In this document: positions 19,873-49,115 of the stretch, piece after piece
How the letters are laid out: each line of letters opens with the position of its first letter
Position numbering within the stretch: the first letter of the stretch is position 1
NCBI GenBank assembly: GCA_001775475.1
Contig: MEWW01000016.1
Span: 1 to 60,495, forward strand
Direction of reading: 5' to 3'
DNA: 60,495 bases
DNA from: Candidatus Adlerbacteria bacterium RIFCSPHIGHO2_12_FULL_53_18
Lineage (GTDB): Bacteria > Patescibacteriota > Minisyncoccia > Phycocordibacterales > SBAW01
Notes under the pieces: generated by a model
Told to the model about the DNA's origin: nothing
Seen by the model: only the letters and a program-made list of their open reading frames with translations
Database searches by the model: none
Position numbers and translations under genes: made by a program

Positions 19873-21318
19873 TCATTCTTTACGCGGGAACAAGGTCTCG
19901 GGCTTTTTGTTTGCAACAATCGCGTCGATGATTTTCTTGCTAGTTTCTGGCACCAAGGGCTCCAGCAGTAAATCAATTGCAGCGAGTTCTTTCACAAGCT
20001 CGACGATAAGCTTCTTGCCAGCCTCTGCATCAGTTTTAACCAGTTTAAATGGCTCTGTCGTAGTGATCTTTTTGTCGAGCGCATGGATGCGGCCCCAGAC
20101 ATATTCGCTCGCTTGGTTAATCTCAAAGTTGTTGAGCGCTTCGGTAAACTCCTCTGGATATGGCACTAACTCCACCTGCACTGGCTCTGGTAAGTGCGTT
20201 TGCGCGAGCGTCAAAATCCTCGAGGCCACGTTGCCGAGCCCATTTGCCAGGTCTGCATTGTACACTTCTTTAAAGCGCTCCATCGTAAAGTCGCTGTCCT
20301 CAAACGGATGTACGTGCCTTGCTAAAAAGTAGCGCAATGCATCCGCACCATATTCTTCAACAATCGCAAATGGGTTGATAACATTGCCGAGCGACTTGCT
20401 CATCTTGTGTCCGCCGCTTGTGATAAAGCCGTGTATAACAATTTGTTTGGTTTGCGGCAAATCAGCAGACATAAGCATTGCCTGCCACATTGCCGCCTGC
20501 TGGCGTATCTGGTCCTTGCCTGCCATCTGCAGGCCGTTTGGTTTTTCTTTCGTGCCCCAAAATTTCTCAAAATTCTTCTCATCCTCTGGCCAGCCTAAGG
20601 TTGAGATGTAGTTAACGAGCGCGTCAAACCAGACATACATCACCTGCGAGTCATCGCCGGGAACCGGCACACCCCAGGGCATCTTTTCCTTGAGCCTCGA
20701 GATGCTGAAGTCTTCCGGGCCATTTTCAATAAACTTTTTTATCTCGTTAAATCTGAAGTCAGGTACGACGAGTTCGGGGTAAGCGGCATACAGGTCAAGA
20801 AGCGGTTGTTTGTATTTGGAAAGTTTGAAAAAGTAATTCTCTTCATCAATCACCTCAAGTTCAAGGTTGGGATGCAGTGGACATTTGCCGTCAACAAGTT
20901 CGGAATCTGTTTTTTCAAGCTCGCAACCGACACAGTACTTGATTTGGTAATTTTTCTTGTAAATATCTCCCGCAACGTGGCACCGCTTCCAAAACTCCTG
21001 TGCAGCTGCTTTGTGATGAGGGTCTGTGGTGCGGGTAAAGGCATTGTAGCTGAGGTTAAGTGTGCCCTTAAGGGCATCAAACTTTGCGGCATATTCGTCT
21101 ACGTATGCCTGGGGAGTCTTCCCTTCTTCGAGCGCCTTGCGGTAGATTTTCACGCCGTGCTCGTCAGAGCCGAAGTTAAAAAATACCTCCTCGCCAAGAA
21201 GCGCATGGTAACGCGCTAAAATATCTGCCTGCACTATCTCAAGTGCAAAGCCTATATGCGGCGGCGCATTCACATACGGTATCGTCGTCGTTATATAGAA
21301 AGCTTTTTTTTCGGCCAT
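19873..21318 (-). CDS. metG: methionyl-tRNA synthetase (short form, no C-terminal tRNA-binding domain)
   Basis: Motifs YVNAPPHIGFALE (HIGH-type) and KMSKSLGN are present. A CXXC...CP knuckle segment is also present. The protein is 481 aa. Confidence 0.9.
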   Translation of the reverse strand: MAEKKAFYITTTIPYVNAPPHIGFALEIVQADILARYHALLGEEVFFNFGSDEHGVKIYRKALEEGKTPQAYVDEYAAKFDALKGTLNLSYNAFTRTTDPHHKAAAQEFWKRCHVAGDIYKKNYQIKYCVGCELEKTDSELVDGKCPLHPNLELEVIDEENYFFKLSKYKQPLLDLYAAYPELVVPDFRFNEIKKFIENGPEDFSISRLKEKMPWGVPVPGDDSQVMYVWFDALVNYISTLGWPEDEKNFEKFWGTKEKPNGLQMAGKDQIRQQAAMWQAMLMSADLPQTKQIVIHGFITSGGHKMSKSLGNVINPFAIVEEYGADALRYFLARHVHPFEDSDFTMERFKEVYNADLANGLGNVASRILTLAQTHLPEPVQVELVPYPEEFTEALNNFEINQASEYVWGRIHALDKKITTTEPFKLVKTDAEAGKKLIVELVKELAAIDLLLEPLVPETSKKIIDAIVANKKPETLFPRKE

Positions 21319-22405: not shown

Positions 22406-23734
22406 CTACACTGTGATGCCGCTCTTCAGAAGCGCAGAAAGTTCGCTTACTTGGACCCGCTTTTGCTCCCCGCTGTCGCGGTCGCGAAGCGTGACGGTGT
22501 CTTTAAGTTCTGGCTTCTCTCCCAACGTGTCAAAGTCTACCGTGACGCACCAGGGGGTGCCTATTTCGTCCTGCCGGCGGTAGCGCTTCCCTATGTTGCC
22601 GTTGTCGTCCCACACGATCTGCGGGATTTCTTTTTTGAGATTCTGGTAGACCTCGCGCGCCTTCTCAACAAGCTCGGGCTTGTTTTTAAGGAGCGGAAAG
22701 ATAGCAGCTTTAACGGGTGCCAAATGGGGAGGAAATTTGAGATATACGCGCTTCTCTCCGCCTAACTCATCTTCGGTGTAAGCCTTAACGATGACCGCAA
22801 GCAAGTGTCTACCTAGCCCAAACGTGGGCTCAAGCACATGGGGTACTGTGCGCTCGTTAGTGTTGGGGTCGAGATACGAGAGGTCAGTGCCGCTGTGCGC
22901 AATGTGGTTGTTAAGGTCAAAGTCGGTGCGGTAGGCTAACCCTCCTATTTCGTCAAATTTGTGTGGGTAGTTAAAGTGAAAGTCTACTGTACGCTTGCTA
23001 TAGTGAGCCCTCTCCCCGTCTGGAATTTCTATCTCTTTAATATCCTCAGGTCCAAATCCCAGTTTTTTAAACCATTCCTGCATTTGCCCGCGCCAGTACT
23101 CAAACCTCTCCTCCCAATTTTTTTCCTCAATAAAATATTCAAACTCCATCAGATCAAACTCGCGCACACGGAATATAAAATCACGCGGCGCAATTTCATT
23201 ACGAAAGGTCTTTCCTATCTGTGCAATACCGAACGGGAGTTTGGGGTGGTAGGAGTCAATGATGTTTTTAAAGTTGACGAACATGCCCTGAGCATTCTCG
23301 GGACGCAAATAAACCGCCGTATCCGAGCCGTCAACTGAGCCGACAGATGTTTTAAACATCATATTGAACTGTCTCGGTTCACTAAGCTTCCCGCCGCACT
23401 CGGGGCACTTGGTAGTGTCCTCAAGATGATCTGCACGAAAGCGGTGCTTGCATTTACTGCACTCCACCAGCGGGTCGGCAAAACCCTGCACATGTCCGCT
23501 CGCCTCCCACACCTTAGGGTTCATTAAAATGGCCGAGTCGAGCCCATACATGTCGTCACGGCTCTCGACAAAAAACCGCCACCACAAATTTTCAATATTT
23601 TTCTTAAGTGCTACGCCTAAGTGCCCGTAGTCCCACGTGCCAGCCAGGCCGCCGTAAATCTCGGAGCCCTGAAACACAAACCCGCGTCGCTTACAGAGCG
23701 ACACTATCTTTTCCATCAATCCTTCTTCAGCCAT
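22406..23734 (-). CDS. glyQS: glycyl-tRNA synthetase (class II, dimeric type)
   Basis: Sequence CKRRGFVFQGSEIYGGLAGTWDYGHLGVALKKNI is typical. Class II motifs and a C-terminal anticodon-binding domain are present. Confidence 0.92.
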   Translation of the reverse strand: MAEEGLMEKIVSLCKRRGFVFQGSEIYGGLAGTWDYGHLGVALKKNIENLWWRFFVESRDDMYGLDSAILMNPKVWEASGHVQGFADPLVECSKCKHRFRADHLEDTTKCPECGGKLSEPRQFNMMFKTSVGSVDGSDTAVYLRPENAQGMFVNFKNIIDSYHPKLPFGIAQIGKTFRNEIAPRDFIFRVREFDLMEFEYFIEEKNWEERFEYWRGQMQEWFKKLGFGPEDIKEIEIPDGERAHYSKRTVDFHFNYPHKFDEIGGLAYRTDFDLNNHIAHSGTDLSYLDPNTNERTVPHVLEPTFGLGRHLLAVIVKAYTEDELGGEKRVYLKFPPHLAPVKAAIFPLLKNKPELVEKAREVYQNLKKEIPQIVWDDNGNIGKRYRRQDEIGTPWCVTVDFDTLGEKPELKDTVTLRDRDSGEQKRVQVSELSALLKSGITV

Positions 23735-25792: not shown

Positions 25793-26374
25793 CTACAACC
25801 CGGTCGCCTGAAGCGACTCGTTTATAGCGCGCAAAAGCAACCTACGGGAGCGCATAACCTCCTCGGCAAGTTCGAGTGAAAAGAAGTCGGCATCTATAAA
25901 TCCTTTGAGCTCCTCTGTGTGCGGCAAATAACCCAGATGATAGAGGATTTTGAGCACCAAGACCGACTCGATACTCTCTGCCCCCCGTGTTTCTGGAGCG
26001 CGCGCGAGCGCGGTCAACCCGCCCTTTACGCTCTCGTAGAGCGCGGGCGCCACCTCCTCGCCCTGGACGAGCCGGAGGAGGAGTTTTGCCACCTTGCCCG
26101 ACTGTCGCGAACGAGCATAGCTGGCGCCCGCGCAGACTCGCGACGCTTGTTCAACTCCGACTAGCTTCCACTCATTTTTACCGCGCACAAGAGTAAAGCG
26201 CGCGTGGGTTAAAGGTTCAAGTCCATAACGCAATTTCGAACTTTCGGCGCGCGCACTGCGTGCCATGGCGCGCACGAGCCCAAGCTCGCTCGTAAGGATA
26301 AAGACAAGCACATTAGCTTCACCCACCCCTCTTTTTCCTAGCACCACTCCCTCGCACACGTGTAGCTGATGCAT
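25793..26374 (-). CDS. recO: DNA repair protein RecO
   Basis: The N-terminal OB domain reads EGVVLGKRGVGEANVLVFILTSELGLVRAMARSAR. Size and position are typical. Confidence 0.75.
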   Translation of the reverse strand: MHQLHVCEGVVLGKRGVGEANVLVFILTSELGLVRAMARSARAESSKLRYGLEPLTHARFTLVRGKNEWKLVGVEQASRVCAGASYARSRQSGKVAKLLLRLVQGEEVAPALYESVKGGLTALARAPETRGAESIESVLVLKILYHLGYLPHTEELKGFIDADFFSLELAEEVMRSRRLLLRAINESLQATGL

Positions 26375-26375: not shown

Positions 26376-29300
26376 TTACTCTTCGCTAATAGTCAGAGAC
26401 TCAAGGCCAGTTTCTTTCAGAATTTCATTCCGGTATTTTTCTGCAATCTCTTTTTCTTCGCCGGCAACGTTGAGCGTGTAGGAAGGTCGGTCGGCAATGG
26501 TGAGCCCCTCTTCTTTGCGCCACTCCTGCACGCGGCGTATCAACGTGCGCACTACACCCTCCTCCTGCAGCTCCGGCGTTAATGTTGCATCGAGCCATGC
26601 GTCCCCATCGATCGAACTGTCTTCAACTACTTCTTTGACATTGAGCTCGTCGGCAACAAGCGCTACGAGTCCGTGGTCAGCGGGCAGCTTGCGTACTTTA
26701 AGCACAAAGAGCGGTTGGCGGACTTTGATTCCCGCCTCTTCGCGGAGCTTCAACCCCTGCGAGGCAAGCGAGCGCACCACCGCCATGTCACTGAGGAGGG
26801 CTTCGTCTGTTGCATACGGCGCAGGCCACGACTCCAGATGCACACTCTCCTTCTCTGCGCCAAGTCCTTGGTAGATGCTCTCTGCGACAAAAGGTGTCAC
26901 GGGCGCCATGAGACACGAGAGCGTGTAGAGCACCTCGCGCTGGGTCGCCAGTGCAAACTTCTTGTCCGTAATGTCCTCGCCGCGAGCGCGGTCACGCGAG
27001 CGGCGCACATACCAGGTTGAGTAGTCTTCAACGAAGCTGCGCAGCGCTCGCACCGCAGTCGGTGTATCGTACGCATCCATTGCTTCAGTAACGGTCTTGG
27101 TTGTTTTGCCGAGGAGCGAAAGCACCCAGCGGTCGAGCACATGTGGGCTGTCCTCCGCCTTGACACTCTTGTCCCACTCACTCTTATAAAGCTCGAAAAA
27201 CTTGTACGAGTTCCAGAGGATGCCTATGGTGCGGTTATGCGCCTCGCGCACGTCTTCGTCTCTAAAGTTAATGTCCTCGCCGCTCATCACGACAGAACCC
27301 ATAAGGTAGAGTCGGAGCGCGTCGGCGCCGAACTGATCCATAACCTGCAAGGGATCAGTATAGTTGCCTTTACTCTTGCTCATCTTGGCACCGTCAGCGG
27401 CAAGGATGGTGCCGGTCGATACCACGCTGCGAAACGACTGCTGGTTAGAAAGAAGAACGCCCATTGCATGCATGTAGTAAAACCACGTGCGGGTCTGGGC
27501 GATATACTCGGCGATAAAGTGTGCGGGGAAGCCTTTGGGCCACAGACCCCAGAGGCGCCCTGGGTTAAATACTTCTTTGTTCTCAAACGGGTAGTGGTTA
27601 GAAGCATAGGGCATAGTGCCAGACTCAACCCAGCAGTCGACAACCTCCGGAATGCGCTCGTACCCCCTGCCCTTGCTGTCAACGAGCGTCACCGCGTCGA
27701 TGTAGGGGCGGTGCAGGTCGAGTCCGTAGTCTTTGTTGTGGGGAAAAGGGGTAAACGAGAGCTTCCGTACTTCAGAGGTCTTGAGCATATACTCTTTTGA
27801 AAAGTCGTTGGATGGGCGGCGTGCCGCCACCTGTTGTAGCACCCATAGCGGATTGCCGTGAGAGATAATGAGAATCCGCTTGCCCGTGTAGCGTCGCTCG
27901 ATTTCAAAGATAAATTCCCCTATGCGCCGGCGCACTTCTATGTGTGCAGTCTCACTCGCCTCGCGCAGACGTTCGTCTACCATGACAGCACTCTCCGGAA
28001 GTCTTAATTCTTTTTGCACTAAAGCGGCGGTTTCTCGCGTACGCAAAAACGGTGAAGTTACAATGAGGTCTATACTCCCGCGCTTGAGTCCGACCGTCGC
28101 CACATGTATTGCGTCTGTTCTTCCTTTTTCAGTAACATGGTTGGCAGGGTCGCCCGTAGGGTCATCAACACCCTCTACATTGTGCCCGGCCTCCGCATGC
28201 CTCATTACAAAGTAGGTATTGCCGGACTTTTTTGTTTTCTCAAGCAGTTCTTTAAGCGAGCCTATAACCATGAGCCTGCTGCCTCCTTTCTCCTTCCAGA
28301 TTGGTAAGGCTGACGCCCAAAATCGATTTCGGGAGATTGTCCAGTCCGGCGCATTCTCGACAATGTGCTTAAAGCGGCCGTGTTTTAGGTGGGCAGGGAC
28401 CCAGTTCACCCGCTCGTTTTGAGCAAGCATGCTTTTTTTCACTTTCTGGATATTTATAAACCACGAGGGTACGGCACTGTAGATAAGCGCCGTACCGCAA
28501 CGGTAGCAGTGCGGGTAGGAGTGCGTATGGTTTTCTTTTTTAAACAGGAGCCCCTGCTCCTCAAGATGCGCTTTGATAACCTTTTCTGCCTTTTTGTAGT
28601 ATTCACCGCGGATAAACTCTGGCGCGGCGTCATTGTACGTGCCGTTGGCGTTTAAGAGTTGGATCATAGGAAGACCCTCTTTCTGACCCAAGGCATAGTC
28701 ATCTTCTCCATACATGACAGCTGTGTGCACGATGCCGGTACCTTCGTCTGTATTCACAAAATCAGCCGCGTACACTTTGTAGGATTTCATTCCGTGGAGA
28801 GCGGGTACGTCAAACAAGGGCTCGTAGCTCATGCCGACAAGCTGCGCGCCTTTTACGCTGCCGGGGCCCGCTTTAATAAAGTGTTCGCCGTCTTTCTCGA
28901 TGAGCTGATAGTCGATATCTTTTCCCACCGCAAGCGCTATGTTGCCCGGCAGCGTCCACGGTGTTGTGGTCCAGGCCAGAAGATAGGTGCGCTCGGGGAG
29001 GTTATACCGAAGCGGATTTTTGATCTTGAACTTCACTGTGACCGCCTCTTCGGTAATATCTTTGTAGGTGTTGTCCATTGCGATCTCGGCTTTCGCAAGC
29101 GGCGTCTCGCAGTGCGGGCAGTACATGAGGACTTTCCGGCCCTCGTAGAGCATTTTCTTGCCGTGGAGTTTTTTGAGCGCCCACCATACCGACTCCATGT
29201 ACGAGTTGTCCATGGTTTTGTAGGAGTTTTTAAAGTCCACAAACCGACCGATGCGGTCGATGTATTTTTCCCACTCGTGTTCAAACTCCATCACACTTGC

Positions 29301-29657
29301 GCGCGCGGCTTCGTTAAACGTGTCGATACCTATACTCAAAATATCTTTTTTGGTTTTGAGGTTGAGGCGTTTCTCTATCAAGCTCTCAATCGGCAAGCCG
29401 TGGCAGTCCCAGCCCCACCGCCGCGGCACGCGGTACCCCTGCATCGTTTTGTAACGCGGGATGACGTCTTTGATTACGGAAGAAAGGAGAGATCCGTGGT
29501 GCGGGAGGCCGGTTGCAAAAGGTGGTCCATCATAGAAGATAAACTCTCCCTTAGGCGCCCACTTACGGAGCGTCTTTTCAAAAATCTGGTTCTCCTTCCA
29601 AAACTCAACTACCCCTTCCTCGCGCTTGGCTGTCTCACTTTTACCCTTATCGGACAT
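26376..29657 (-). CDS. ileS: isoleucyl-tRNA synthetase (type 2-like) with nested histidine-phosphatase domain
   Basis: IleRS motifs FYDGPPFATGLPHHG, WTISRNRFW, DCWVESGTMPYA and KMSKSKGN are present. The insert at about aa 480-642 carries RHAE, SPFLRTRETA and ISHG motifs. Confidence 0.92.
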   Translation of the reverse strand: MSDKGKSETAKREEGVVEFWKENQIFEKTLRKWAPKGEFIFYDGPPFATGLPHHGSLLSSVIKDVIPRYKTMQGYRVPRRWGWDCHGLPIESLIEKRLNLKTKKDILSIGIDTFNEAARASVMEFEHEWEKYIDRIGRFVDFKNSYKTMDNSYMESVWWALKKLHGKKMLYEGRKVLMYCPHCETPLAKAEIAMDNTYKDITEEAVTVKFKIKNPLRYNLPERTYLLAWTTTPWTLPGNIALAVGKDIDYQLIEKDGEHFIKAGPGSVKGAQLVGMSYEPLFDVPALHGMKSYKVYAADFVNTDEGTGIVHTAVMYGEDDYALGQKEGLPMIQLLNANGTYNDAAPEFIRGEYYKKAEKVIKAHLEEQGLLFKKENHTHSYPHCYRCGTALIYSAVPSWFINIQKVKKSMLAQNERVNWVPAHLKHGRFKHIVENAPDWTISRNRFWASALPIWKEKGGSRLMVIGSLKELLEKTKKSGNTYFVMRHAEAGHNVEGVDDPTGDPANHVTEKGRTDAIHVATVGLKRGSIDLIVTSPFLRTRETAALVQKELRLPESAVMVDERLREASETAHIEVRRRIGEFIFEIERRYTGKRILIISHGNPLWVLQQVAARRPSNDFSKEYMLKTSEVRKLSFTPFPHNKDYGLDLHRPYIDAVTLVDSKGRGYERIPEVVDCWVESGTMPYASNHYPFENKEVFNPGRLWGLWPKGFPAHFIAEYIAQTRTWFYYMHAMGVLLSNQQSFRSVVSTGTILAADGAKMSKSKGNYTDPLQVMDQFGADALRLYLMGSVVMSGEDINFRDEDVREAHNRTIGILWNSYKFFELYKSEWDKSVKAEDSPHVLDRWVLSLLGKTTKTVTEAMDAYDTPTAVRALRSFVEDYSTWYVRRSRDRARGEDITDKKFALATQREVLYTLSCLMAPVTPFVAESIYQGLGAEKESVHLESWPAPYATDEALLSDMAVVRSLASQGLKLREEAGIKVRQPLFVLKVRKLPADHGLVALVADELNVKEVVEDSSIDGDAWLDATLTPELQEEGVVRTLIRRVQEWRKEEGLTIADRPSYTLNVAGEEKEIAEKYRNEILKETGLESLTISEE

Positions 29658-29667
29658 ATTGACAAAC

Positions 29668-29730
29668 TATAGTCGAGCGAGCGAGAGAAGTAAAATCTTT
29701 ATTTTAACTTCCGAGCGAGCGATGACTATA
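29668..29730 (-). promoter_or_regulatory. nested-hairpin element, copy upstream of ileS
   Basis: The sense strand reads TATAGTC-ATCGCTCGCTCG-GAAGTTAAAAT-aaag-ATTTTACTTC-TCTCGCTCGCTC-GACTATA. TATAGT sits 8 nt before the ATG. Confidence 0.5.
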
Positions 29731-29763
29731 TAGACGAAGTCTCTATAGCACTTTCAACGCTTT

Positions 29764-31338
29764 TTACATCTTTTCGGGCGCAGGGATGCCGAGCGCCGAT
29801 AGGCCTTTTTGGAGCGTTTTTTCTACTGCTTGTGCGAGGAGTGTGCCGTACTTGGGAGCACTGCCACCAATAACGCGCTCGCTTGCGTACCAGCTGTTAA
29901 AAGCCGAGGCGAGTTCTGTGAGGTAAGTCGTAACGTAGTGCGGCTCGAGTTCCTTCGCGGCCCGTTCAACTACGTCAGGGTAGTGAAGGAGAAGCCGCTC
30001 AAGAGTGTTCGCGTTTGCCGGCGCGTCACTTTGATCAGCTTTGATACCTACTTTCTCCGCTTCACGCAGTAATGAAAGCGCCCGAGTGTGGGCATACTGC
30101 ACATACGGCCCCGAGTCCCCTTCAAGCGAAAGTGACTTTTCCGGATCAAAGATAATATCTTTGCCGCTTCCCTGTTTTAATACCGCATATTTAATTGCCC
30201 CAACAGCCACGTCTTGCCGGTCCCGCGCGGCTTTTTGTAAATCGTCAAGCAATGCCTCACCAGTAATTATATTTCCTTTACGCGAGGACATTTTACCGGT
30301 TGTGAGCTTTAAGAATCCGTGGAATCGTCCAAGCATTTTGCCTTCAAGATCAGGAAAAATCTTTTCCGCTGCAGCACGGACCACCTTAAAATAATCTTGT
30401 ATTTCATTTGCGGTTACAGTGAGCGAAATATCGAAATCTCCTTTCTGCTTTTTTGCTTCGACCAACCCAAGCTCTTTTGCTTCGTACGTTGGGAGGCCAA
30501 GCGAGTTTATAAACACGCGTGTGTGGAGACCGTATTGCTCGCCGCGAAACACAATTGCCCCCTCACTTTCTTCAAAAACTTCACTGTGCTCCTTAATAAG
30601 CTTTAATCCTATGGGGCCCGTTTCGCTCTCAAAAAAGTAGTGAGCGAATTTGGTGCCGAGCACAGCATAGATCTCTTCAAAATGTTCAAGCGATTGTGCG
30701 CGGCCCTCGTCGTACAACTTGTTAATTATCTCGTCGCTTTTCTCATAAATCTTCTTATTTATTGCATCAATTTTCTCCTTATTGGCCTCGTATTCGTTGT
30801 TGCCATATACATACGCGTCCCCCCATGAAAGCCCTGGTTTTTGCAGCTTAGCCCAAATGGCTTTCGCAACGTGTACGCCCACATCTCCTTGGTAGTTGGC
30901 GCGCACAACTTCTGCTCCTGACATATCAAGCACACGAGCTATGGCCTCGCCTATCGCGTTGCTCATGAGGTGGCCGATGTGGAACTCTTTAAACGGATTC
31001 GGGTCAGTATACTCGACCATTATCTTCTTGCCTTTGTACAAATCGTTTGTGCCCCACCTCTCTTCTCTGGCTGCGGCCTCAACCTCTTTTGCAATCGCTT
31101 CGCGCGAGAGGAAAAAATTTATGAACTTCCCCACTACTTCAACCTTTTCTACCCCATCTATTTTGAGTTTCTCCGCAAGCTCATTGGGGTCCACTTTGGC
31201 CACAAGCGCGGCATTCGTTGAGTAATCGCCATGCGCCATCGAGCGCGGCCGCTCTACTACAAAAGTGGCCCCTCCTGCCCCAAGTGCCTTCAGCGCGGCT
31301 TCTACCGCCGCTTCTATACTGCCTCTTACCATACGCAT
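29764..31338 (-). CDS. argS: arginyl-tRNA synthetase
   Basis: The motif FKEFHIGHLMSNAIGEAI (HIGH) is present. The DALR anticodon-binding C-terminus ends ...PEKM. A possible alternative start is M3 at 31332. Confidence 0.9.
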   Translation of the reverse strand: MRMVRGSIEAAVEAALKALGAGGATFVVERPRSMAHGDYSTNAALVAKVDPNELAEKLKIDGVEKVEVVGKFINFFLSREAIAKEVEAAAREERWGTNDLYKGKKIMVEYTDPNPFKEFHIGHLMSNAIGEAIARVLDMSGAEVVRANYQGDVGVHVAKAIWAKLQKPGLSWGDAYVYGNNEYEANKEKIDAINKKIYEKSDEIINKLYDEGRAQSLEHFEEIYAVLGTKFAHYFFESETGPIGLKLIKEHSEVFEESEGAIVFRGEQYGLHTRVFINSLGLPTYEAKELGLVEAKKQKGDFDISLTVTANEIQDYFKVVRAAAEKIFPDLEGKMLGRFHGFLKLTTGKMSSRKGNIITGEALLDDLQKAARDRQDVAVGAIKYAVLKQGSGKDIIFDPEKSLSLEGDSGPYVQYAHTRALSLLREAEKVGIKADQSDAPANANTLERLLLHYPDVVERAAKELEPHYVTTYLTELASAFNSWYASERVIGGSAPKYGTLLAQAVEKTLQKGLSALGIPAPEKM

Positions 31339-42068: not shown

Positions 42069-42097
42069 ATAGAAAGAATACCACTAACTTTTATCTG

Positions 42098-42170
42098 GGT
42101 GCCTATCCGGATTCGAACCGGAATTGACTCCTCCACAGGGAGCAGTGTTAACCATTACACTATAGGCACC
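42098..42170 (-). tRNA. tRNA-His (GTG) with encoded G-1
   Basis: The reverse complement reads G-GTGCCTA-TA-GTGT-AATGGTTA-ACAC-T-GCTCC-CTGTGGA-GGAGT-CAAT-TCCGG-TTCGAAT-CCGGA-TAGGCAC-C. Confidence 0.9.
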
Positions 42171-42196
42171 ATGCACTGCTGACCGGGCACTATGCG

Positions 42197-43195
42197 CTAG
42201 AGAATACCTTTTTTAAGCGCTCTGCGCGAGGATATGTAGGCGAGGGTGACAAACATAAGGCCGATAAGTCCTATCACCGCCTCCGGGATATGTATCACGA
42301 GCCCTGCGAGCATGGCGAGCGCGAGCCCCAAAATTGCCCAGTGCGCGCCGTGCTCAAGATACTTCAGCGTCTCGAGCGTCTTTTTGCGCACAAGGTGGAC
42401 GGTGATGGTACGCACAAAGAACGCGCCAATGCCAAGACCAACAAAGATAATCGGAATAGCGGTGGTGAGTGCAAACGCACCGATAACACCGTCGAGTGAG
42501 AAGGCGGCATCAAGAATGTTGAGGTAGATAAAGAGCACGAGGCCTGTCTGCGTTGCCATGCTTGCCGCATGGCCGTTGTCCATGCGAAGCGTGTTTGCAA
42601 TGCCCTGAATCACGATAAAAAGGAGGATACCGATGCAGCCCGCTGCAAGTACCGGCCCCTGCGGCGCATGTGCGAGGTACGAGAGCATGAGCACGATTGA
42701 GAGCGCGAGTGCCAACTCTATCGCCTCTATTCTCCCCCAGCGCGCGAGCCGACTCTCAATCATTGCAAGCCAGTGCACCTTCTTGCCGACATCAAAGAAG
42801 TATTTGAGCGAGACCATGAGGAGAAACGCACCGCCGAAGGCGCCGATGAGCGGCGTTGCTTCAGCAAGGAGTCGCCCGTACTCTTCCGGATTTTCAAGCG
42901 CGAGAATCGCGGCGGTTATGGGCGAGACGAGAGCCGCGATGCTTACAATAATTGCCGGGAGAATAAGCCGTGTGCCGAAGACCGCAAACAGTATACCCCA
43001 GGTCAAGAAACGGCGTTGCCACTTCTCGCTCATTTGTGCGAGCACTTTCGCGTTAACGACTGCGTTGTCAAAGGAGAGCGTAACTTCGAGTACTGAGAGC
43101 AGACACGCAAGCAGAAATGCCGCCCACCCGCCCCATATGAAAATGGCCCCGAGTGCTACCACCGAAATTACGACTGGCGCGATAAAAAGTCTCAT
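42197..43195 (-). CDS. integral membrane protein, DUF475/TerC-like
   Basis: The motif LEVTLSFDNAVVNAKVL is present, with a second half-repeat DAAFSLDGVIGAFA. The protein has about 9 TM helices. Confidence 0.6.
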   Translation of the reverse strand: MRLFIAPVVISVVALGAIFIWGGWAAFLLACLLSVLEVTLSFDNAVVNAKVLAQMSEKWQRRFLTWGILFAVFGTRLILPAIIVSIAALVSPITAAILALENPEEYGRLLAEATPLIGAFGGAFLLMVSLKYFFDVGKKVHWLAMIESRLARWGRIEAIELALALSIVLMLSYLAHAPQGPVLAAGCIGILLFIVIQGIANTLRMDNGHAASMATQTGLVLFIYLNILDAAFSLDGVIGAFALTTAIPIIFVGLGIGAFFVRTITVHLVRKKTLETLKYLEHGAHWAILGLALAMLAGLVIHIPEAVIGLIGLMFVTLAYISSRRALKKGIL

Positions 43196-43215
43196 TGTGT
43201 ATTACAGAAAACCGG

Positions 43216-43297
43216 TGCCCGGGAGAGGACTCGAACCTCCACGCCTTGCGGCACATCCACCTCAAGGATGCTTGGCTACCAATTACAACACCCGGGC
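43216..43297 (-). tRNA. tRNA-Leu (GAG), type II
   Basis: The reverse complement reads GCCCGGG-TG-TTG-TAATTGGTAGC-CAA-G-CATCC-TTGAGGT-GGATG-TGCCGCAAGGCGT-GGAGG-TTCGAGT-CCTCT-CCCGGGC-A. Confidence 0.9.
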
Positions 43298-43303
43298 ATC
43301 CAC

Positions 43304-43780
43304 CTATTCTACTGCACCCTCTTGATTTACAGGGGTGGAGGGTGCTACCTCCTCAACCACTTCTGCAGGAGCAGCTACCTGCAACTGCCGGCGCATCGCA
43401 CGTTTGACGTCTCGAGCAGCCTTGCGGCGGATAAAGTAGAGCTTGGCGCGGCGCACTCGTGCGCGGCGCACCACTTCTATAGTGTCAACAAGCGGCGAGT
43501 ACAGCGGGAAAATGCGCTCCACCCCAACTCCGCTAGCGACACGGCGTACCGTAAACGTGGAGCCAGCCTCAGTGCCGTGTTTTACTGCCAAGACCGTGCC
43601 CTCAAAGGCCTGGCGGCGGGCACTTTTGGTAACCACCTCTTTTTTGTTTGCTGCCTTACCTTTTTTGAGCTCGACGATGTTTTGCCAGACACGCACGGTG
43701 TCTCCGGCACGCAGCGAGAGAGCTTGACGCGCCTTCATATCAACCGGTGAGACTTTAACTGCTGACTGCATTGCCGACAC
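43304..43780 (-). CDS. rplS: 50S ribosomal protein L19 (C-terminal extension)
   Basis: Sequences RAGDTVRVWQNIVE...FEGTVLAVKHGTEAGSTFTVRRVASGVGVERIFPLYSP are typical of L19. The start is either GTG at 43780 or ATG at 43771. Confidence 0.88.
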   Translation of the reverse strand: MSAMQSAVKVSPVDMKARQALSLRAGDTVRVWQNIVELKKGKAANKKEVVTKSARRQAFEGTVLAVKHGTEAGSTFTVRRVASGVGVERIFPLYSPLVDTIEVVRRARVRRAKLYFIRRKAARDVKRAMRRQLQVAAPAEVVEEVAPSTPVNQEGAVE

Positions 43781-43797
43781 ACTTTAACACACGAGAT

Positions 43798-44457
43798 TCA
43801 ACCCCGCAAACGCGCCTCTGCTGCAATAAAATCAGCAGGAAGCGGCGCCTCAAAGGTCATCTCGCGGCCCTGTGGATGCGTGAAGGTAAGGGAGAGCGCA
43901 TGGAGAGCCAGCCGCTCAAATCCAAGGAGTTTCGGCCTCCCCGGCGCGTATAAGGGGTCGCAGATAATCGGGTGCTGTATCGCCGAGAAGTGCACGCGGA
44001 TCTGGTGCGTGCGGCCGGTTTTTGGAAACACTTCTACGTACGCAGCGTCGGAGCCATTTTGGATGACCCGGTAGGTCGTGAGCGCGTCGCGGGTTGCGCC
44101 ATGCGGCAGGTGTGCCGAGCGCGGGCCCTTGCCGCCGCGCGCAGAGCCGATGGGCTTGTCGATGACCCCGCGCTCGGCCTTGAGTGCGCCGTATACAAAC
44201 GCGCGATACGTCTTTTTTATCTCTCTGTTTTGAAACTGGCTTTTTAAAAACTCGAACGCTTTTTCTGTCCGAGCCACCACTAAGACCCCGCTCGTCTCGC
44301 GGTCGATGCGATGCACGAGATGAAAGCCGGGATACTTTTTCTCAAGCCACTCGGTTAATGCCGGATAGTCATGCGTTTTGTCGGGATGCACGATAACGCC
44401 CGCAGGCTTGTTAATCACAAGCAAGTCATCGTCTACGTAAAGAATCTCTGGGTCCAT
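43798..44457 (-). CDS. RluA-family pseudouridine synthase
   Basis: I moved the start to MDPEILYVDDDLLVINKPAG because the longer ORF reads through tRNA-Val. The catalytic motif HRIDRETSGVLVVA is present. Confidence 0.85.
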   Translation of the reverse strand: MDPEILYVDDDLLVINKPAGVIVHPDKTHDYPALTEWLEKKYPGFHLVHRIDRETSGVLVVARTEKAFEFLKSQFQNREIKKTYRAFVYGALKAERGVIDKPIGSARGGKGPRSAHLPHGATRDALTTYRVIQNGSDAAYVEVFPKTGRTHQIRVHFSAIQHPIICDPLYAPGRPKLLGFERLALHALSLTFTHPQGREMTFEAPLPADFIAAEARLRG

Positions 44458-44461
44458 TGTG

Positions 44462-44534
44462 TGGGCGATACAGGACTCGAACCTGTGACCTTCCCCGTGT
44501 AAAGGGGTTGCTCTACCAACTGAGCTAATCGCCC
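44462..44534 (-). tRNA. tRNA-Val (TAC)
   Basis: The reverse complement reads GGGCGAT-TA-GCTC-AGTTGGTA-GAGC-A-ACCCC-TTTACAC-GGGGA-AGGTC-ACAGG-TTCGAGT-CCTGT-ATCGCCC-A. Confidence 0.92.
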
Positions 44535-44638
44535 ATCTTTCTCTGTGGTCACGAATAATTGCTCGCCGACGCTCACAATTTTCGCGACCCCGGCTCGCGG
44601 TTTTGCCATTGCAAAACATCGCTGCGCCTGGCTTACGT

Positions 44639-44670
44639 GTTGAAAAAACAAAGCAGTTTGTTTTTTCAAC
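44639..44670. terminator. perfect 14-bp AT-rich hairpin between tRNA-Arg(TCT) and tRNA-Val
   Basis: GTTGAAAAAACAAA-gcag-TTTGTTTTTTCAAC. The internal U-runs make it a possible bidirectional terminator. Confidence 0.55.
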
Positions 44671-44674
44671 CGTG

Positions 44675-44746
44675 TGCCCCTGCGAGGAATCGAACCTCGA
44701 ACAGCGGCTTAGAAGTCCGCGGTTATATCCATTTAACTACAGGGGC
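44675..44746 (-). tRNA. tRNA-Arg (TCT)
   Basis: The reverse complement reads GCCCCTG-TA-GTTA-AATGGATA-TAAC-C-GCGGA-CTTCTAA-GCCGC-TGTT-CGAGG-TTCGATT-CCTCG-CAGGGGC-A. There is an A31/G39 mismatch. Confidence 0.88.
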
Positions 44747-44799
44747 TCCCCCGACCCACACAACGGCATAATAAATGAAAAATGCCAATAGCGCGAGGG

Positions 44800-45465
44800 C
44801 TACCCTTGGGTCTTTTCCCACTCTTTAAGCGTTGAGCGGAAAAGGAGAAACCCGAGCGGGATAAGGATGGCCCCAGCAGCAAGCGCTGCCGGCAGTACCC
44901 ACCACAGCCCCAGGGTGAGCGCAGATCCGAGGCCCGCGAGCGCCATCGTGGGTATAAGCCCAATCGGCACATAGATAAGGAAAAATGGGATGAAGCTGAT
45001 GCGGGTTAGTCCTGCACCGTAGGCAACAACTTCAGGCGCAGGCATAAAGCACACTCGTGCTACAAGAAAACCCTTAACCGTACCCATCATCTTAAGCGCG
45101 CGGGCAAGAAACTTCTGGTCGTCGCCAAGAAACTTCTCGACCAGGTGTCGCCCGAAGATACGACTTAGGTAAAATGCGATAATCCCGCCAAGCGCGTCGC
45201 CAATCACAAGAAGACCTACTCCTTTCCAAAACCCGAAGAGTGCTCCTGCAAGCGGATAGAGCGGCGACCCGCCAAGAGGCGCGATGACAACGGTTGATGC
45301 TTTGGCGAGTATCAGGGCGAGCGGAGCCCAGAAGCCCGCGCGCTTAATGGTTTCCTGAACCTCGGTAAGGCCGAAGTAGCGCAACAGAACATAAATACCT
45401 CCCAAGATAACCGTAAGGCTAACTAAGCTTGTGAGAAGTTGTTTTTTTGATACGCCGGTTTCCAT
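44800..45465 (-). CDS. TVP38/TMEM64 (DedA-superfamily) membrane protein
   Basis: The sequence shows the pattern APLALILAKASTVVIAPLGGSPLYPLAGALFGFWKG...IIAFYLSRIFGR. Confidence 0.7.
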   Translation of the reverse strand: METGVSKKQLLTSLVSLTVILGGIYVLLRYFGLTEVQETIKRAGFWAPLALILAKASTVVIAPLGGSPLYPLAGALFGFWKGVGLLVIGDALGGIIAFYLSRIFGRHLVEKFLGDDQKFLARALKMMGTVKGFLVARVCFMPAPEVVAYGAGLTRISFIPFFLIYVPIGLIPTMALAGLGSALTLGLWWVLPAALAAGAILIPLGFLLFRSTLKEWEKTQG

Positions 45466-45468
45466 ACT

Positions 45469-45798
45469 TTAATGTACGCGCGCGCCCGGAGCGCCGTTAC
45501 TTTCAAAAAGTGCGAAAGGAGTCTCGCCATCGCCTCCGGTTGCCATAATCATCGCCTGACTCTCTAAGCCCATCATCATCCTAGGCATCAAGTTCGTCAC
45601 AAACGGACACTTTTTGCCGACAAGTTCCTCGGGGTTTGGGAAATACGCCGCAATGCCAGAGAGCACTTGTCTCTCTTCACTTCCAAAATTAACCTTGAGC
45701 TTCAAGAGCTTGTCGCTCCCCTCTATCTTTTCGGCACTTTTAATTTCGCCGATCCGGATCTCTACTTTTTTAAAGTCGTCGATACTAATTGGTTCCAT
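45469..45798 (-). CDS. stand-alone tRNA-binding domain protein (Trbp111/CsaA-like)
   Basis: FKKVEIRIGEIKSAEKIEGSDKLLKLKVNFGSEERQVLSGIAAYF...ESQAMIMA has the OB-fold pattern found at the MetRS C-terminus. Confidence 0.8.
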   Translation of the reverse strand: MEPISIDDFKKVEIRIGEIKSAEKIEGSDKLLKLKVNFGSEERQVLSGIAAYFPNPEELVGKKCPFVTNLMPRMMMGLESQAMIMATGGDGETPFALFESNGAPGARVH

Positions 45799-46201
45799 GT
45801 TGGCCCATTTTGTCTAAATATCCTTGTAAAATCAACGCGGCAGCAGAAGCGTCGAGGTCTTCCTGCTTTGCCCCCTCTCCTCTTTTATCAAGGCCTTGCC
45901 GCAGCGCCTGCGCGCTGGTCATGAACTCCGGCTCGTACTCAACCGTGAGAGAAGTGAATTCTGCCAAATCTTTCTTAAACTGCTCTATATCCTCCATCAC
46001 AGGGTTTGGCTGGTCTTTAAAGTTGCGCGACTCGCCTATCACGATTTTTTCTATGCGGTTGTCCTTGGCAAGCTGCGCGACCTCAGAAAGCGCCTGTGGC
46101 CCCGCCACAACGGTTGCGAGCGGGAACGCAATCGTCCCTGTTTCGTCCGACTGCGCAACGCCAATGCGCTTCGTACCGTAGTCGATGCCCAAATACTTCA
46201 T
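45785..46201 (-). CDS. ruvX: Holliday-junction resolvase-like nuclease RuvX (YqgF)
   Basis: Sequence MKYLGIDYGTKRIGVAQSD is typical, and the size (138 aa) fits. Confidence 0.88.
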   Translation of the reverse strand: MKYLGIDYGTKRIGVAQSDETGTIAFPLATVVAGPQALSEVAQLAKDNRIEKIVIGESRNFKDQPNPVMEDIEQFKKDLAEFTSLTVEYEPEFMTSAQALRQGLDKRGEGAKQEDLDASAAALILQGYLDKMGQHGTN

Positions 46202-46251
46202 GTAGGTTCAGCATAGCGAACAATCACGAAAAAGTGTATCTTTTGGTGAAT

Positions 46252-46339
46252 GGAGGGGTGCGTGAGCGGTTGAAACGAGCAGTCTTGAAAACTGCCAGGT
46301 CGCAAGGCCTCGTGGGTTCGAATCCCACCCCCTCCGCCA
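46252..46339 (+). tRNA. tRNA-Ser (TGA), type II, CCA encoded
   Basis: GGAGGGG-TG-CGT-GAGCGGTTGAA-ACG-A-GCAGT-CTTGAAA-ACTGC-CAGGTCGCAAGGCCTC-GTGGG-TTCGAAT-CCCAC-CCCCTCC-G-CCA. Confidence 0.93.
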
Positions 46340-46357
46340 GACTGATACAATACCATT

Positions 46358-46672
46358 GTGATAGACACTATAGACTTAGTACACGCAGCTATTATCACTT
46401 TAGTAGCGTTTTTGTTTTACACATTCCTAAAAAAGAAATCTTTTCTTACTGTATTGGAGTATTTCACGTTTGGCATTGCAGGAGCTTTTGTCGGTCTTTT
46501 ATTTGCAATAGGACTTGCGGATGCACCCTACTGGTGTTCCTATACCATTTGCGCGTGGTGGGGCACACTTTCTTCTATCACAGGAACATTAATCCCCGTT
46601 GGAGTTGGAACAATAGGCGCATTGGCATATACTCACTATAGGCAAAAACGCGCAAGCTTAAATAGTGTCTAA
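46358..46672 (+). CDS. small 3-TM membrane protein in a low-GC islet
   Basis: The ORF encodes a 104-aa hydrophobic protein. Two 60-nt lines (46381-46500) count 32% and 38% GC, visibly lower than the flanks. Confidence 0.4.
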   Translation: MIDTIDLVHAAIITLVAFLFYTFLKKKSFLTVLEYFTFGIAGAFVGLLFAIGLADAPYWCSYTICAWWGTLSSITGTLIPVGVGTIGALAYTHYRQKRASLNSV

Positions 46673-47487
46673 TAATCAAACTCGCCGCCTGAGAAGATGC
46701 GCTTGCCTTGCGGAAAGGCATCGATGCGCAACAAATCTGTTTCTTCAATCGTGAAGTCGAGCGACTCGAAATTCTCTTTGATGCGCTCTGGGGTTTTGCT
46801 CCGCGGAATCGCCACCATACCGCGCGAGACAATCCAGTTAAGGATTATCTGCGGTGCTGTCGCGCCGTACTTGTTTGCAAGCTCGACAAGCAGCGGCAGT
46901 TCCAGGTCTGCACCGCGCCCAAGGGGCGCATACGCGGTAATAATGATCCCGTGCTCGGCACAAAACTCGCGCAAATCTTTTTGATTGAAAGCCGGATGTG
47001 TCTCTACTTGGTTAACACTCACCTCAACTCCGGTTTGAAACGTGTCTTCGAGATGGTGCCTGGTAAAGTTGGAGACGCCAATAGCACGAATCTTCCCCGC
47101 ATCTTTCAGCTCCTGCATGGCCTTGAGTGTCTCTCCCACTGGCACCGCGCGGTTGGGCCAGTGAATTAAGAGTAGGTCGATGTAGTCGGTATTGAGTTCC
47201 TCTAAATAACGCTTGGTTGCACTCAGCACATCTTTATACGCATGGTCATCGCCATCGATTTTTGTCGTCAAGAAAATCTCCTCGCGCGGCACGCCGGAAC
47301 TTTTTATCCCTGCGGCAACCGCTTCGTGGTTGCCGTAGCTGTCGGCGGTGTCGAGGAGCCGATAGCCGACCTCAAGCGCGTGTCTAACCGCTTCTGCGCC
47401 AACGTTGCCCGTGAGCCTTGAGGTGCCGAAGCCCATGACCGGCATGGCAACGCCGGCCTTAAGCGCAAAAGTCTTCGTCATACGCAA
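46669..47487 (-). CDS. aldo/keto reductase
   Basis: Motifs MPVMGFGT, GYRLLDTADSYGNHEAV, LLLIHWP and IGVSNF are present. Confidence 0.88.
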   Translation of the reverse strand: MRMTKTFALKAGVAMPVMGFGTSRLTGNVGAEAVRHALEVGYRLLDTADSYGNHEAVAAGIKSSGVPREEIFLTTKIDGDDHAYKDVLSATKRYLEELNTDYIDLLLIHWPNRAVPVGETLKAMQELKDAGKIRAIGVSNFTRHHLEDTFQTGVEVSVNQVETHPAFNQKDLREFCAEHGIIITAYAPLGRGADLELPLLVELANKYGATAPQIILNWIVSRGMVAIPRSKTPERIKENFESLDFTIEETDLLRIDAFPQGKRIFSGGEFDY

Positions 47488-47524
47488 AAGTATATCAAAG
47501 AGGTGGTGTTATACTAAAAGCTAT

Positions 47525-47989
47525 ATGCCGGCAGAGGCTGAGATCTCATGGGTGGTGCGGCGCGCGCATCACGAGCGCAGTAACGACTGGTACTGGGGCC
47601 TGGGAGCCTTGGCGCTTGCAGGAGCACTTGCCTCTATTTTTTTCAGCAACATACTGCTTGCAATCATTATTATAATGAGTGCGGTGTCAGTCGGCGTCTT
47701 GGCATCACGCGAGCCGCGAGAGCACTCAGTCAAGCTCGACCGCCGCGGCATGGTGATAGACGGCACGCGCTACCCCTTTGCTTCCATACACTCATTTTGG
47801 GTCGAGCATGAGACAAGCTCGCCGCGGCTTTTTCTCAGCATGAACGGCATTGTCACCTCGCACTTCTCTTTTGAGCTTGAAGACGAAGCACAAGGCAGCC
47901 GTGTGCGCGAGTTCCTCAAGCAGTTCGCGCTGGAAGAAGAGCAGGGTCCGCACATAGGCGAGCATCTCGCGGAAATTTTCAAACTTTAG
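47525..47989 (+). CDS. two-TM membrane protein, unknown function
   Basis: I moved the start to MPAEAEISW (ATG at 47525) because the longer ORF overlaps the AKR gene start. The gene ends with TAG. Confidence 0.45.
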   Translation: MPAEAEISWVVRRAHHERSNDWYWGLGALALAGALASIFFSNILLAIIIIMSAVSVGVLASREPREHSVKLDRRGMVIDGTRYPFASIHSFWVEHETSSPRLFLSMNGIVTSHFSFELEDEAQGSRVREFLKQFALEEEQGPHIGEHLAEIFKL

Positions 47990-47996
47990 TTTTTTG

Positions 47997-48068
47997 TGCT
48001 TCCGGCAGGAATCGAACCTGCATCACCTCCTTCGGAGGGAGATATTCTATCCATTGAACTACGGAAGC
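47997..48068 (-). tRNA. tRNA-Arg (CCG)
   Basis: The reverse complement reads GCTTCCG-TA-GTTC-AATGGATA-GAAT-A-TCTCC-CTCCGAA-GGAGG-TGAT-GCAGG-TTCGATT-CCTGC-CGGAAGC-A. Confidence 0.9.
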
Positions 48069-48103
48069 TAATGCTTCACTTATAACACTTTTACGTACGT
48101 TTG

Positions 48104-48175
48104 TGCTCCCGCGAGGAATCGAACCTCGATCACGAACTCCGCAAGCTCGCATTCTATCCGTTGAACTACGGGAGC
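48104..48175 (-). tRNA. tRNA-Arg (GCG)
   Basis: The reverse complement reads GCTCCCG-TA-GTTC-AACGGATA-GAAT-G-CGAGC-TTGCGGA-GTTCG-TGAT-CGAGG-TTCGATT-CCTCG-CGGGAGC-A. Confidence 0.88.
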
Positions 48176-48184
48176 GTAGAAAGA

Positions 48185-48427: not shown

Positions 48428-48434
48428 GCGCGAG

Positions 48435-48440
48435 ATAGTA
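48435..48440 (-). promoter_or_regulatory. -10-like hexamer TACTAT, 7 nt before rpsT ATG
   Basis: Minus strand reads TACTAT-ctcgcgc-ATG. Confidence 0.4.
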
Positions 48441-48514: not shown

Positions 48515-48521
48515 TAGCAGC

Positions 48522-49112: not shown

Positions 49113-49115
49113 CGT

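Follow-up and report, generated by a model that had tools for sequence, protein, structure and literature searches.

The window analyzed here, a stretch of 60,495 nucleotides from Candidatus Adlerbacteria bacterium RIFCSPHIGHO2_12_FULL_53_18 (contig MEWW01000016.1, positions 1 to 60,495), encodes an isoleucyl-tRNA synthetase (IleRS) that contains an additional enzyme domain. The gene, ileS, lies on the minus strand at 26376..29657 (stop codon 26376–26378), and its product is a type-2 IleRS of 1093 amino acids in which a branch-1 histidine phosphatase (HP) domain of 166 amino acids is nested (amino acids 478–643; 27729..28226). We lean toward a reading in which this domain is a catalytically competent, integral accessory module of type-2 IleRS that sits in the former zinc-knuckle loop of connective peptide 3 (CP3). 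A full-text search of the literature found no description of an IleRS or a valyl-tRNA synthetase (ValRS) with a histidine phosphatase domain. Proteins and loci retrieved in our searches are cited by their P and L numbers, and all features of ileS given below are on the minus strand.

A histidine phosphatase domain nested in type-2 IleRS

The domain was identified by a match to PF00300 (His_Phos_1) with an E-value of 1e-16 and 61.6 bits, compared with a gathering score of 21.7. A first-pass annotation of the window had placed a phosphatase block at 27732–28220 (amino acids 480–642), which differs by only a few residues from the boundaries assigned here. When modeled alone with AlphaFold2 (AF2), the insert reached a pLDDT of 93.5 and a pTM of 0.90, and confidence was equal within the full-length model. 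A Foldseek search of the insert against the PDB returned 298 matches at E≤0.001, the top 50 of which were all His_Phos_1 proteins. The insert superposes on PhoE (1H2E) with a TM-score of 0.79, a root-mean-square deviation of 2.4 Å, and 26% identity; other top fold matches include the mycobacterial hydrolase 6S2Q, Rv2419c, CobC, PspA, and RosC. As modeled, the insert is an autonomous α/β His_Phos_1 fold, which answers the question of independent folding raised in the first-pass annotation.

The phosphatase motifs recognized in the first-pass annotation (FVMRHAEAGHN, LIVTSPFLRTRETA, DERLRE, and ILIISHGNPL) are all present in the order that it gave, and the catalytic residues within them are conserved. 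We counted these residues in 118 orthologues of the window's clade and in a wider set of 198 copies, of which 157 are nested and 41 are free-standing. R486 and H487 (28197..28202) form the RHG-type motif, which reads RHA in this protein (FVMRHAEA), and H487 is the predicted phospho-acceptor nucleophile; in the model, strand E481–486 immediately precedes this histidine. R486 is found in 117 and H487 in all 118 of the orthologues, and both are present in every one of the 198 copies where these positions are aligned. N493 is kept in 112 of 118. The second arginine of the phosphate pocket, R539 (SPFLRTRETA; 28041..28043), is invariant in the 198 copies. The predicted general acid/base is E566 (DERLRE; 27960..27962); this position is glutamate in 118/118 members of the window's clade and in 157/157 nested copies, and among the free-standing copies it is glutamate in 33 and aspartate in 8. 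H600, the second catalytic histidine (ILIISHG; 27858..27860), is invariant in the window's clade and present in 197 of 198 copies overall. R539, E566, and H600 align with the corresponding motifs of PhoE. The inserts of the orthologues are only ~30–70% identical to that of the window, yet the catalytic set is near-invariant. Constancy of these residues while the rest of the insert drifts points to purifying selection on catalysis, and the domain is probably active.

The synthetase that surrounds the domain has every IleRS landmark listed in the first-pass annotation (PPFATGLPHHG, WTISRNRFW, DCWVESGTMPYA, and KMSKSKGN). A single open reading frame (ORF) runs through both junctions, so that the description of a domain within a domain holds. 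The protein scores 794.8 bits against the ileS equivalog TIGR00392 in NCBIfam, above the cut-off of 621.4. Pfam detects tRNA-synt_1 (E 5.6e-117), Anticodon_1, and DUF5915, with His_Phos_1 splitting the catalytic domain in two, as had been predicted. The full-length AF2 model (pLDDT 88.2, pTM 0.80) matched 8c8v, 7d5c, 8wnd, and 1ile in Foldseek at E-values of 1e-63 to 1e-75, whereas the IleRS1 structures 8c9e and 1qu2 gave weaker matches (1e-46 to 1e-52). The top fold matches are thus IleRS2 of P. megaterium (8C8V), the yeast and Candida IleRS, and 1ILE. In agreement with Foldseek, phmmer ranked IleRS2 and eukaryotic IleRS above IleRS1. The scaffold is a housekeeping type-2 (eukaryote-like) IleRS.

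The N-terminal part of the synthetase (amino acids 1–477; 28227..29657) aligns with residues 6–481 of 1ILE and comprises the first half of the Rossmann fold, the CP core, CP1, CP2, and the first half of CP3. The C-terminal part (amino acids 644–1093; 26379..27728), which corresponds to 1ILE residues 488–817, comprises the second half of the Rossmann fold, the anticodon-binding domain, and the C-terminal DUF5915. The first zinc site is retained in the CP core (CPHC, 29109–29120; CYRC, 28497–28508). The CP1 editing domain carries the motif WTTTPWTLPGN (amino acids 229–239; 28941–28973), and its editing residues W229, T230–T232, P233, W234, T235, H311, and D320 show no variation in 76 sequences; the CP1 region also aligns with the isolated editing-domain structures 1WK8 and 1UDZ. 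In the KMSKS loop (amino acids 758–762; 27372–27386), K, S, K, and S are unchanged in 120 sequences.

The fourth histidine of the class I signature HxGH normally contacts ATP. In the window's IleRS this signature reads HHGS (amino acids 53–56; 29490..29501). Across the clade (n=118), the first histidine and the glycine at position 3 are invariant, and position 4 is serine in 105, asparagine in 9, and histidine in 4. Judged by its residues, HHGS would be unusual in the active site of an enzyme that serves as the only housekeeping IleRS. A different non-canonical signature, G/AXHH, is known to be tolerated by IleRS2, and the work on it does not describe an HxGS variant (PMC10485003).

Insertion into the zinc knuckle of CP3

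CP3 is the subdomain that follows CP2 and precedes the second half of the Rossmann fold; no two of the three solved IleRS have the same CP3 topology, and zinc is bound by CP3 in the T. thermophilus enzyme alone (PMC7191050). Residues 6–481 of T. thermophilus IleRS correspond to residues 5–476 of the window's protein, and residue 488 resumes at position 646. A connection of six residues in ordinary IleRS is therefore matched by ~165 additional residues in the window. The first-pass annotation had stated that only a short linker normally separates the two flanks, and they are indeed contiguous in ordinary IleRS (T. thermophilus, P0090, and L007).

The domain interrupts CP3 between an upstream arm (amino acids 451–477, LPIWKEKGGSRLMVIGSLKELLEKTKK; 28227..28307) and a downstream arm (amino acids 644–672, YGLDLHRPYIDAVTLVDSKGRGYERIPEV; 27642..27728). 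In the upstream arm, EKGG stands in place of the first cysteine pair, which is present in T. thermophilus (IWVCQACG), in the insert-less P0090 (IWKCKKCQ), and in L007 (FECECG). In the downstream arm, VDSKGRG replaces the second pair, which reads LACACGG in T. thermophilus and FACSCGD in P0090. We considered a loss of zinc ligands in all insert-bearing enzymes and rejected it, since it is true of the window's clade only: among 33 divergent nested IleRS, 21 keep CxxC...CxxC around the HP domain, and in the other 12 both pairs are gone together. The retention of ligands around the domain in 21 of 33 indicates that HP entered the loop of the zinc knuckle and that the ligands were lost later. Three nested states exist, namely zinc ligands kept, zinc lost, and both zinc and cap lost (the cap is described below). 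From these sequences, the order of change was insertion of HP into the CP3 knuckle loop, then loss of the zinc ligands, then loss of the cap. The window's IleRS is in the most derived state: nested, with neither zinc ligands nor cap.

Two insert-less IleRS with a full four-cysteine CP3 (P0090 and P0117) stand on a quick neighbor-joining tree beside short-form, zinc-less insert-bearers. They are ~78% identical to these insert-bearing neighbors outside CP3, and the gene order argS-ileS-recO is common to both. Because simple deletion of the insert cannot restore four cysteines, the CP3 segment looks exchangeable by recombination.

Distribution of the fusion

Related genomes show a clade-wide feature and not a singularity, which answers the survey suggested by the first-pass annotation. 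PF00300 was detected in 118 of the 120 closest IleRS (57–100% identity) in a database of 5.8 billion proteins. The named carriers are Candidatus Paceibacterota, Kaiserbacteria, Adlerbacteria, Parcubacteria, and Minisyncoccia, and the database labels of their proteins are no more than 'class I tRNA ligase family protein', 'isoleucyl-tRNA synthetase', or 'hypothetical protein'; the first and last of these are the generic names used by NCBI. A profile built from 32 inserts, used in an exhaustive search of 1.84 billion cluster representatives, retrieved 337 clusters (50% identity) at E≤1e-30.

The 90%-identity cluster of the window's protein contains five full-length variants of 1093 amino acids, which occur on no fewer than 12 contigs in ENA, NCBI, and JGI; the junctions have therefore been assembled independently many times. 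GC content runs on evenly through the insert. The database also holds short proteins with PF00133 and PF00300, which are pieces of ileS on frameshift-ridden contigs (L001 and L002). On contigs of this type the neighboring genes are fragmented too, with argS in five pieces. L001 comes from a relative whose insert is 56% identical to that of the window; its ileS is spread over four ORFs, probably as a result of frameshift errors, and an IS605 OrfB/TnpB-like gene (419 amino acids) and a Cas1 gene (254 amino acids) lie between argS and ileS (L001:1937–4022).

A free-standing form is encoded beside ileS

The insert profile also retrieves proteins of ~185–220 amino acids that start with M..N.YF.LRHG, at E-values of 1e-41 to 1e-59. 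Against this profile the window's domain scores 224 bits and the free-standing proteins P0220 and P0006 score 171 and 148 bits, respectively. P0220 is encoded in L007–L009 in the order argS, HP, ileS, a small ORF, recO, and a CLIPPER-like gene, which is the window's own order; HP and ileS meet there at the junction TAA-T-ATG. The partner IleRS in L007 has 984 amino acids, lacks an insert, keeps the CP3 cysteines, and is 36% identical to that of the window. In the window, ileS is preceded by argS (29764..31338, minus strand) and followed by recO (25793..26374, minus strand; Pfam RecO_N), both of which are conserved neighbors. The 106-nucleotide spacer between argS and ileS (29658..29763) is the slot occupied by the free-standing HP gene in sister lineages of the Paceibacteria and contains no HP gene. 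The order argS-(HP)-ileS-recO was found in L001–L003, in L007, and at 40 of the 41 free-standing loci described next.

A search with a profile of the free-standing form, taking one genome per species, located 80 loci, in 39 of which HP is nested in ileS and in 41 of which it is free-standing; the peptide patterns came from one free-standing subgroup, so that these counts describe a biased sample. The loci come from Staskawicz-, Jorgensen-, Portnoy-, Nealson-, Taylor-, Lloyd-, Harrison-, and Nomurabacteria, from Paceibacterota, and from bins labeled Saccharibacteria, several of which are probably mislabeled. At 39 of the 41 free-standing loci, HP is directly followed by ileS in the same orientation; of the remaining two, one lies at a contig end and the other has no ileS within 4.5 kb. 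argS lies upstream at 40 of the 41. The gap between HP and ileS is ≤10 nucleotides in 25 loci and ≤60 nucleotides in 29. The partner ileS genes, all insert-less, fall into two divergent types (20 and 19 loci), and their products keep the zinc knuckle in all cases that could be evaluated.

We delineate an IleRS-associated HP subfamily by a strong match to the insert profile together with a location in or directly upstream of ileS, and the window's domain belongs to it. P0008, a remote His_Phos protein, is encoded next to a sulfatase gene and not ileS, which indicates that the association with ileS is specific to the subfamily. The nested domain and the product of the gene adjoining ileS are one HP subfamily and form a Rosetta-stone pair. 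A genome search with P0006 gave only a remote match in Woesearchaeota (L006, 24% identity) with no synthetase-sized ORF nearby, and it was dropped.

Several peculiarities of the free-standing loci were noted. In eight loci, ORFs lie between HP and ileS; by eye they are a mixture of CYTH-like, cupin-like, pyridoxal phosphate (PLP)-enzyme-like, HD-domain-like, and toxin-antitoxin-like sequences, and no common theme was apparent in the eight. In L070, the intervening ORF (L070:5055–6038) opens with an IleRS-like N-terminal peptide (MSIDFPKIEKKILKFWQENKIK) that is followed by unrelated sequence, and recognizable ileS begins ~1 kb beyond; this may reflect a mobile insertion or an interrupted gene start. 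One of the two insert-less IleRS types (L007:2709–5663 and 19 further loci, including L010, L012, and L017–L019) has a GVHH signature, and in the same enzymes EMHKS replaces KMSKS. The non-canonical G/AXHH signature, of which GVHH is an instance, has been linked to mupirocin hyper-resistance (PMC10485003).

Loss of the cap in the window's domain

In the branch-1 histidine phosphatase family, a cap shapes the substrate pocket. Long-form relatives of the window's domain and PhoE have ~33–40 additional residues after the catalytic glutamate that are absent from the window, and PhoE residues 84–122 have no counterpart in it. What remains is the sequence ASETAHI (amino acids 567–573; 27939..27959), the scar of the deleted cap. 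The cap is missing from 25 of the 157 nested copies, whereas every one of the 41 free-standing copies has it, and in copies of the window's type 0–2 of 28 cap columns are occupied. By sequence comparison, the cap-less form of the window is a secondary derivative of a capped ancestor and not a relative of SixA.

The IleRS tree had led us to propose repeated, independent losses of the cap. We withdrew this proposal because the tree of the HP domain puts all cap-less copies together. The 25 copies form one block in that tree, and their IleRS bodies occupy at least eight places in the IleRS tree. This conflict, seen between quick neighbor-joining trees, could reflect spread of the cassette by recombination, convergent loss, or a tree artefact.

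Multiple copies and a parallel in ValRS

Some IleRS contain more than one HP domain. Tandem pairs occupy CP3 in P0177 (1468 amino acids), P0172, P0205, P0227, and P0238, and in P0160, P0216, and P0254 (1379–1419 amino acids) a different, second insertion site is used, which follows the KMSKS region and lies just ahead of the anticodon-binding domain. The RHG motif and the second histidine are present in nearly all copies of these two-HP enzymes.

The top match of the profile search, P0129, proved to be a ValRS with four HP domains. Among the 119 nearest ValRS in a search seeded with P0129, 70 contain His_Phos_1, with one copy in 58, two in 11, and three in 1. ValRS with one to four HP domains were noted among P0284–P0401 and at L096:4001–7303. 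HP-bearing ValRS are 1040–1626 amino acids long and have complete C-terminal domains, those that are named come from Gracilibacteria and Peregrinibacteria, and one HP-bearing ValRS (P0291) was found on 12 contigs. Most of the HP copies (72 of 83) lie between WCISRQIWWGHxIPVWY and QDxDTLDTWFSS, which is the homologous CP3 site; a minority of seven lie elsewhere, before the WCISRQ motif (for example, in P0294 and P0289). The CP3 cysteines of ValRS are absent where HP is present and kept in an HP-less CP3 of the same set.

The ValRS domains fall outside the IleRS-associated subfamily: their median score with the IleRS-HP profile is 66 bits, whereas an unlinked, free-living HP reaches 133 bits. 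No HP, argS, or ileS gene was found near valS in the loci examined, and two loci of HP-less ValRS had no adjacent free-standing HP gene. Two different histidine phosphatases have thus become nested in corresponding subdomains, CP3 in each case, of two synthetases that are paralogues, in two lineages of the candidate phyla radiation (CPR).

Discussion

The arrangement described above suggests a model in which a neighboring HP gene would have been captured into ileS, once or more than once. The nested domain would then hydrolyze a phosphomonoester through a phospho-His487 intermediate. We consider it probable that this activity is functionally coupled to the synthetase, as opposed to being simply carried by it. 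For the class of substrate our suggestion is tentative and speculative: a nucleotide or RNA-end phosphomonoester that is met at Ile and Val synthetases, candidates being a nucleotide product or a tRNA whose charging is blocked by a phosphate on its acceptor end. One may also speculate that the cap-less, open site of the window's domain would accommodate a bulky substrate better than the other variants. An unlikely extension of the model is that the domain constitutes a third class Ia catalytic site, beside the synthetic and editing sites, with a tethered 'end-healing' or de-inhibition activity. Phosphate would be removed from the acceptor end of tRNA (a 3'- or 2'-phosphate, or pyrophosphate added by a toxin) or from the synthetase itself, so that charging proceeds. 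The site would have arisen convergently in IleRS of Paceibacteria and in ValRS of Gracilibacteria and Peregrinibacteria, and the free-standing HP would be a trans-acting partner of IleRS.

Several observations weigh against an integral, active module. The solved structures nearest to the domain are generic small-molecule phosphatases. Its composition (25 K+R compared with 23 D+E) has no basic bias, PADLOC found no match for the domain, its free-standing homologue, or the whole protein, and no NCBIfam equivalog for a characterized phosphatase subfamily claims the domain, since the models for dPGM, GpmB, PspA, CobC, and SixA all score far under their cut-offs; none of these results gives a clue to substrate. 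The clade itself includes insert-less IleRS whose zinc knuckle is restored and whose locus is free of HP genes (P0090, P0117, and L003:1692–4475), which means that IleRS can work without the module. The argS-HP-ileS-recO block is conserved as a whole, so adjacency of HP and ileS could be inherited gene order. Finally, the glutamate or the second histidine seems in the alignment to be missing from roughly one-quarter to one-third of the ValRS copies, counts that depend on a profile made from IleRS inserts.

Some of these points would be expected if the domain were a passenger, that is, an ordinary metabolite phosphatase or mutase (such as the phosphoglycerate mutase, a phosphoserine phosphatase, or a nucleotide phosphatase of the cell) that local rearrangement moved into a permissive surface loop and that IleRS, with an unrelated activity, merely carries for co-expression. 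Small-molecule phosphatases are its structural neighbors, the ancestral form has the usual substrate-shaping cap, the gene block is syntenic throughout and may owe its adjacency to inheritance without selection, and the insert-less enzymes look like revertants that have no HP at the locus. The variable topology of CP3 among solved IleRS makes it plausible that the loop is permissive (PMC7191050). Proximity, however, cannot explain ValRS, whose CP3 gained a different His_Phos_1 lineage without a neighboring HP gene. Nor does passive carriage sit easily with the multiplication of HP copies within both IleRS and ValRS, with a coupling of HP to ileS that persists across two ileS types only ~36% identical, or with a cap loss confined to nested copies. 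We regard the passenger explanation, the main rival, as doubtful, and more so a structural one, in which a pseudo-enzyme does no more than join the two strands of CP3 in place of the lost zinc knuckle or offer a docking surface. The window's clade does lack both cysteine pairs, the N and C termini of HP bridge the same two CP3 strands, and the cap segment was dispensable. Yet five catalytic residues are invariant over 118–198 copies while the rest drifts to 30–40% identity, free-standing copies keep the same catalytic set, and zinc ligands persist in 21 of 33 nested forms, so that HP was not recruited as their replacement; a purely structural role is accordingly very unlikely. The broken ileS genes of L001 and L002 and the short PF00133–PF00300 proteins could be taken as signs of chimeric assembly or of adjacent genes merged by sequencing or annotation error. 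The neighbors on those contigs are broken as well, which marks the assemblies as frameshift-prone, whereas 12 or more contigs of independent origin contain the intact 1093-amino acid ORF, and its architecture is shared by over 100 orthologues. Both halves of IleRS, each required for a complete enzyme, also flank the insert in frame. The chance that the fusion is an artefact is negligible, and the chimera raised as a concern in the first-pass annotation can be set aside.

Our preferred reading of HP as an active, integral module of IleRS has broader implications. Few enzymes have been studied as thoroughly as aminoacyl-tRNA synthetases (aaRS), and apart from the editing domain, extra catalytic domains in their catalytic core are very rare. 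The pattern of a neighboring gene, a nested domain, multiple copies, and a parallel in ValRS points to an unrecognized phosphate-removing step in the charging of tRNA with isoleucine and valine in the ultra-small bacteria of the CPR. Matches to His_Phos_1 or PGAM in metabolic reconstructions of Parcubacteria and Gracilibacteria may be parts of synthetase genes. CP3 appears as a natural site of domain insertion and could serve engineering.

Surroundings of ileS in the window

Four synthetase genes lie on the minus strand between 19873 and 31338: a 481-amino acid minimal MetRS (19873–21318), a class II GlyRS-like gene (22406–23734), IleRS, and ArgRS. A 653-amino acid CLIPPER-like protein and recO are encoded between them. 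The MetRS, GlyRS-like, and ArgRS proteins have no extra domain. The argS-ileS spacer (29658–29763) contains CGAGCGAGCGA twice and CTATAG three times around an AT-rich center, an arrangement that may mark a promoter or another regulatory element in front of ileS. The first position of the window falls within a 23S rRNA gene (1–671, minus strand), of which the 5' 627 nucleotides are present. Eight tRNA genes are found at 42097–52317 (His, Leu, Val, three Arg, Ser, and Lys); no tRNA-Ile gene is among the tRNA genes of the window.

Comparison with known systems

The window's IleRS has the architecture of T. thermophilus IleRS (1ILE) and P. megaterium IleRS2 (8C8V), with which it shares the KMSKS and CP1 motifs, the first zinc site, and the anticodon-binding and C-terminal domains. 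As in other type-2 IleRS, CP3 lies between the WxISR motif and DxWxESG. The window's enzyme differs from these two in having a 166-amino acid enzyme domain in CP3 and HxGS in place of HxGH, and from T. thermophilus IleRS in having lost the four CP3 zinc ligands.

The nested domain has the same fold as PhoE/YhfR of Geobacillus stearothermophilus (1H2E/1EBB) and the same catalytic residues in the same order. PhoE, Rv2419c GpgP, CobC, PspA, and RosC are free-standing proteins of ~200–230 amino acids with a cap for a small-molecule pocket, whereas the window's domain is cap-less and embedded. In size and in its cap-less, open site it is similar to the minimal phosphatases SixA and Alr0221 (~160 amino acids), and Alr0221 (3F2I) aligns over its whole length with a target-normalized TM-score of 0.70; however, the SixA model TIGR00249 gives the domain only 31.4 bits compared with a cut-off of 74.5. 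Cofactor-dependent phosphoglycerate mutase was considered and rejected: NF038349 gives 42 bits compared with 225, other gpmA and gpmB models give ≤27 compared with ≥261, and the cap segment is deleted.

A curated precedent for an extra enzymatic domain in IleRS is NF040702, IleRS with an N-acetyltransferase domain. That domain is a GNAT and not a histidine phosphatase, and the window's protein, at 297 bits compared with a cut-off of 1999, is not a member. The insert's best NCBIfam match is the Rv2228c-type RNase H/acid phosphatase (NF005567; E 5.5e-13, 49 bits compared with a cut-off of 326). This type also combines a nucleic-acid enzyme with a CobC-like His_Phos_1 domain, which is joined end-to-end with RNase H, whereas that of the window is nested. 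CP1 is the textbook case of a second catalytic domain inside the Rossmann fold of IleRS, ValRS, and LeuRS. CP1 is universal and hydrolyzes mischarged aminoacyl-tRNA, whereas HP is lineage-specific, lies in CP3, and has the predicted chemistry of a phosphomonoesterase. Among aaRS with accessory domains, the IleRS of the window stands out for an unusual nested enzyme that has both a split-gene counterpart and a convergent twin.

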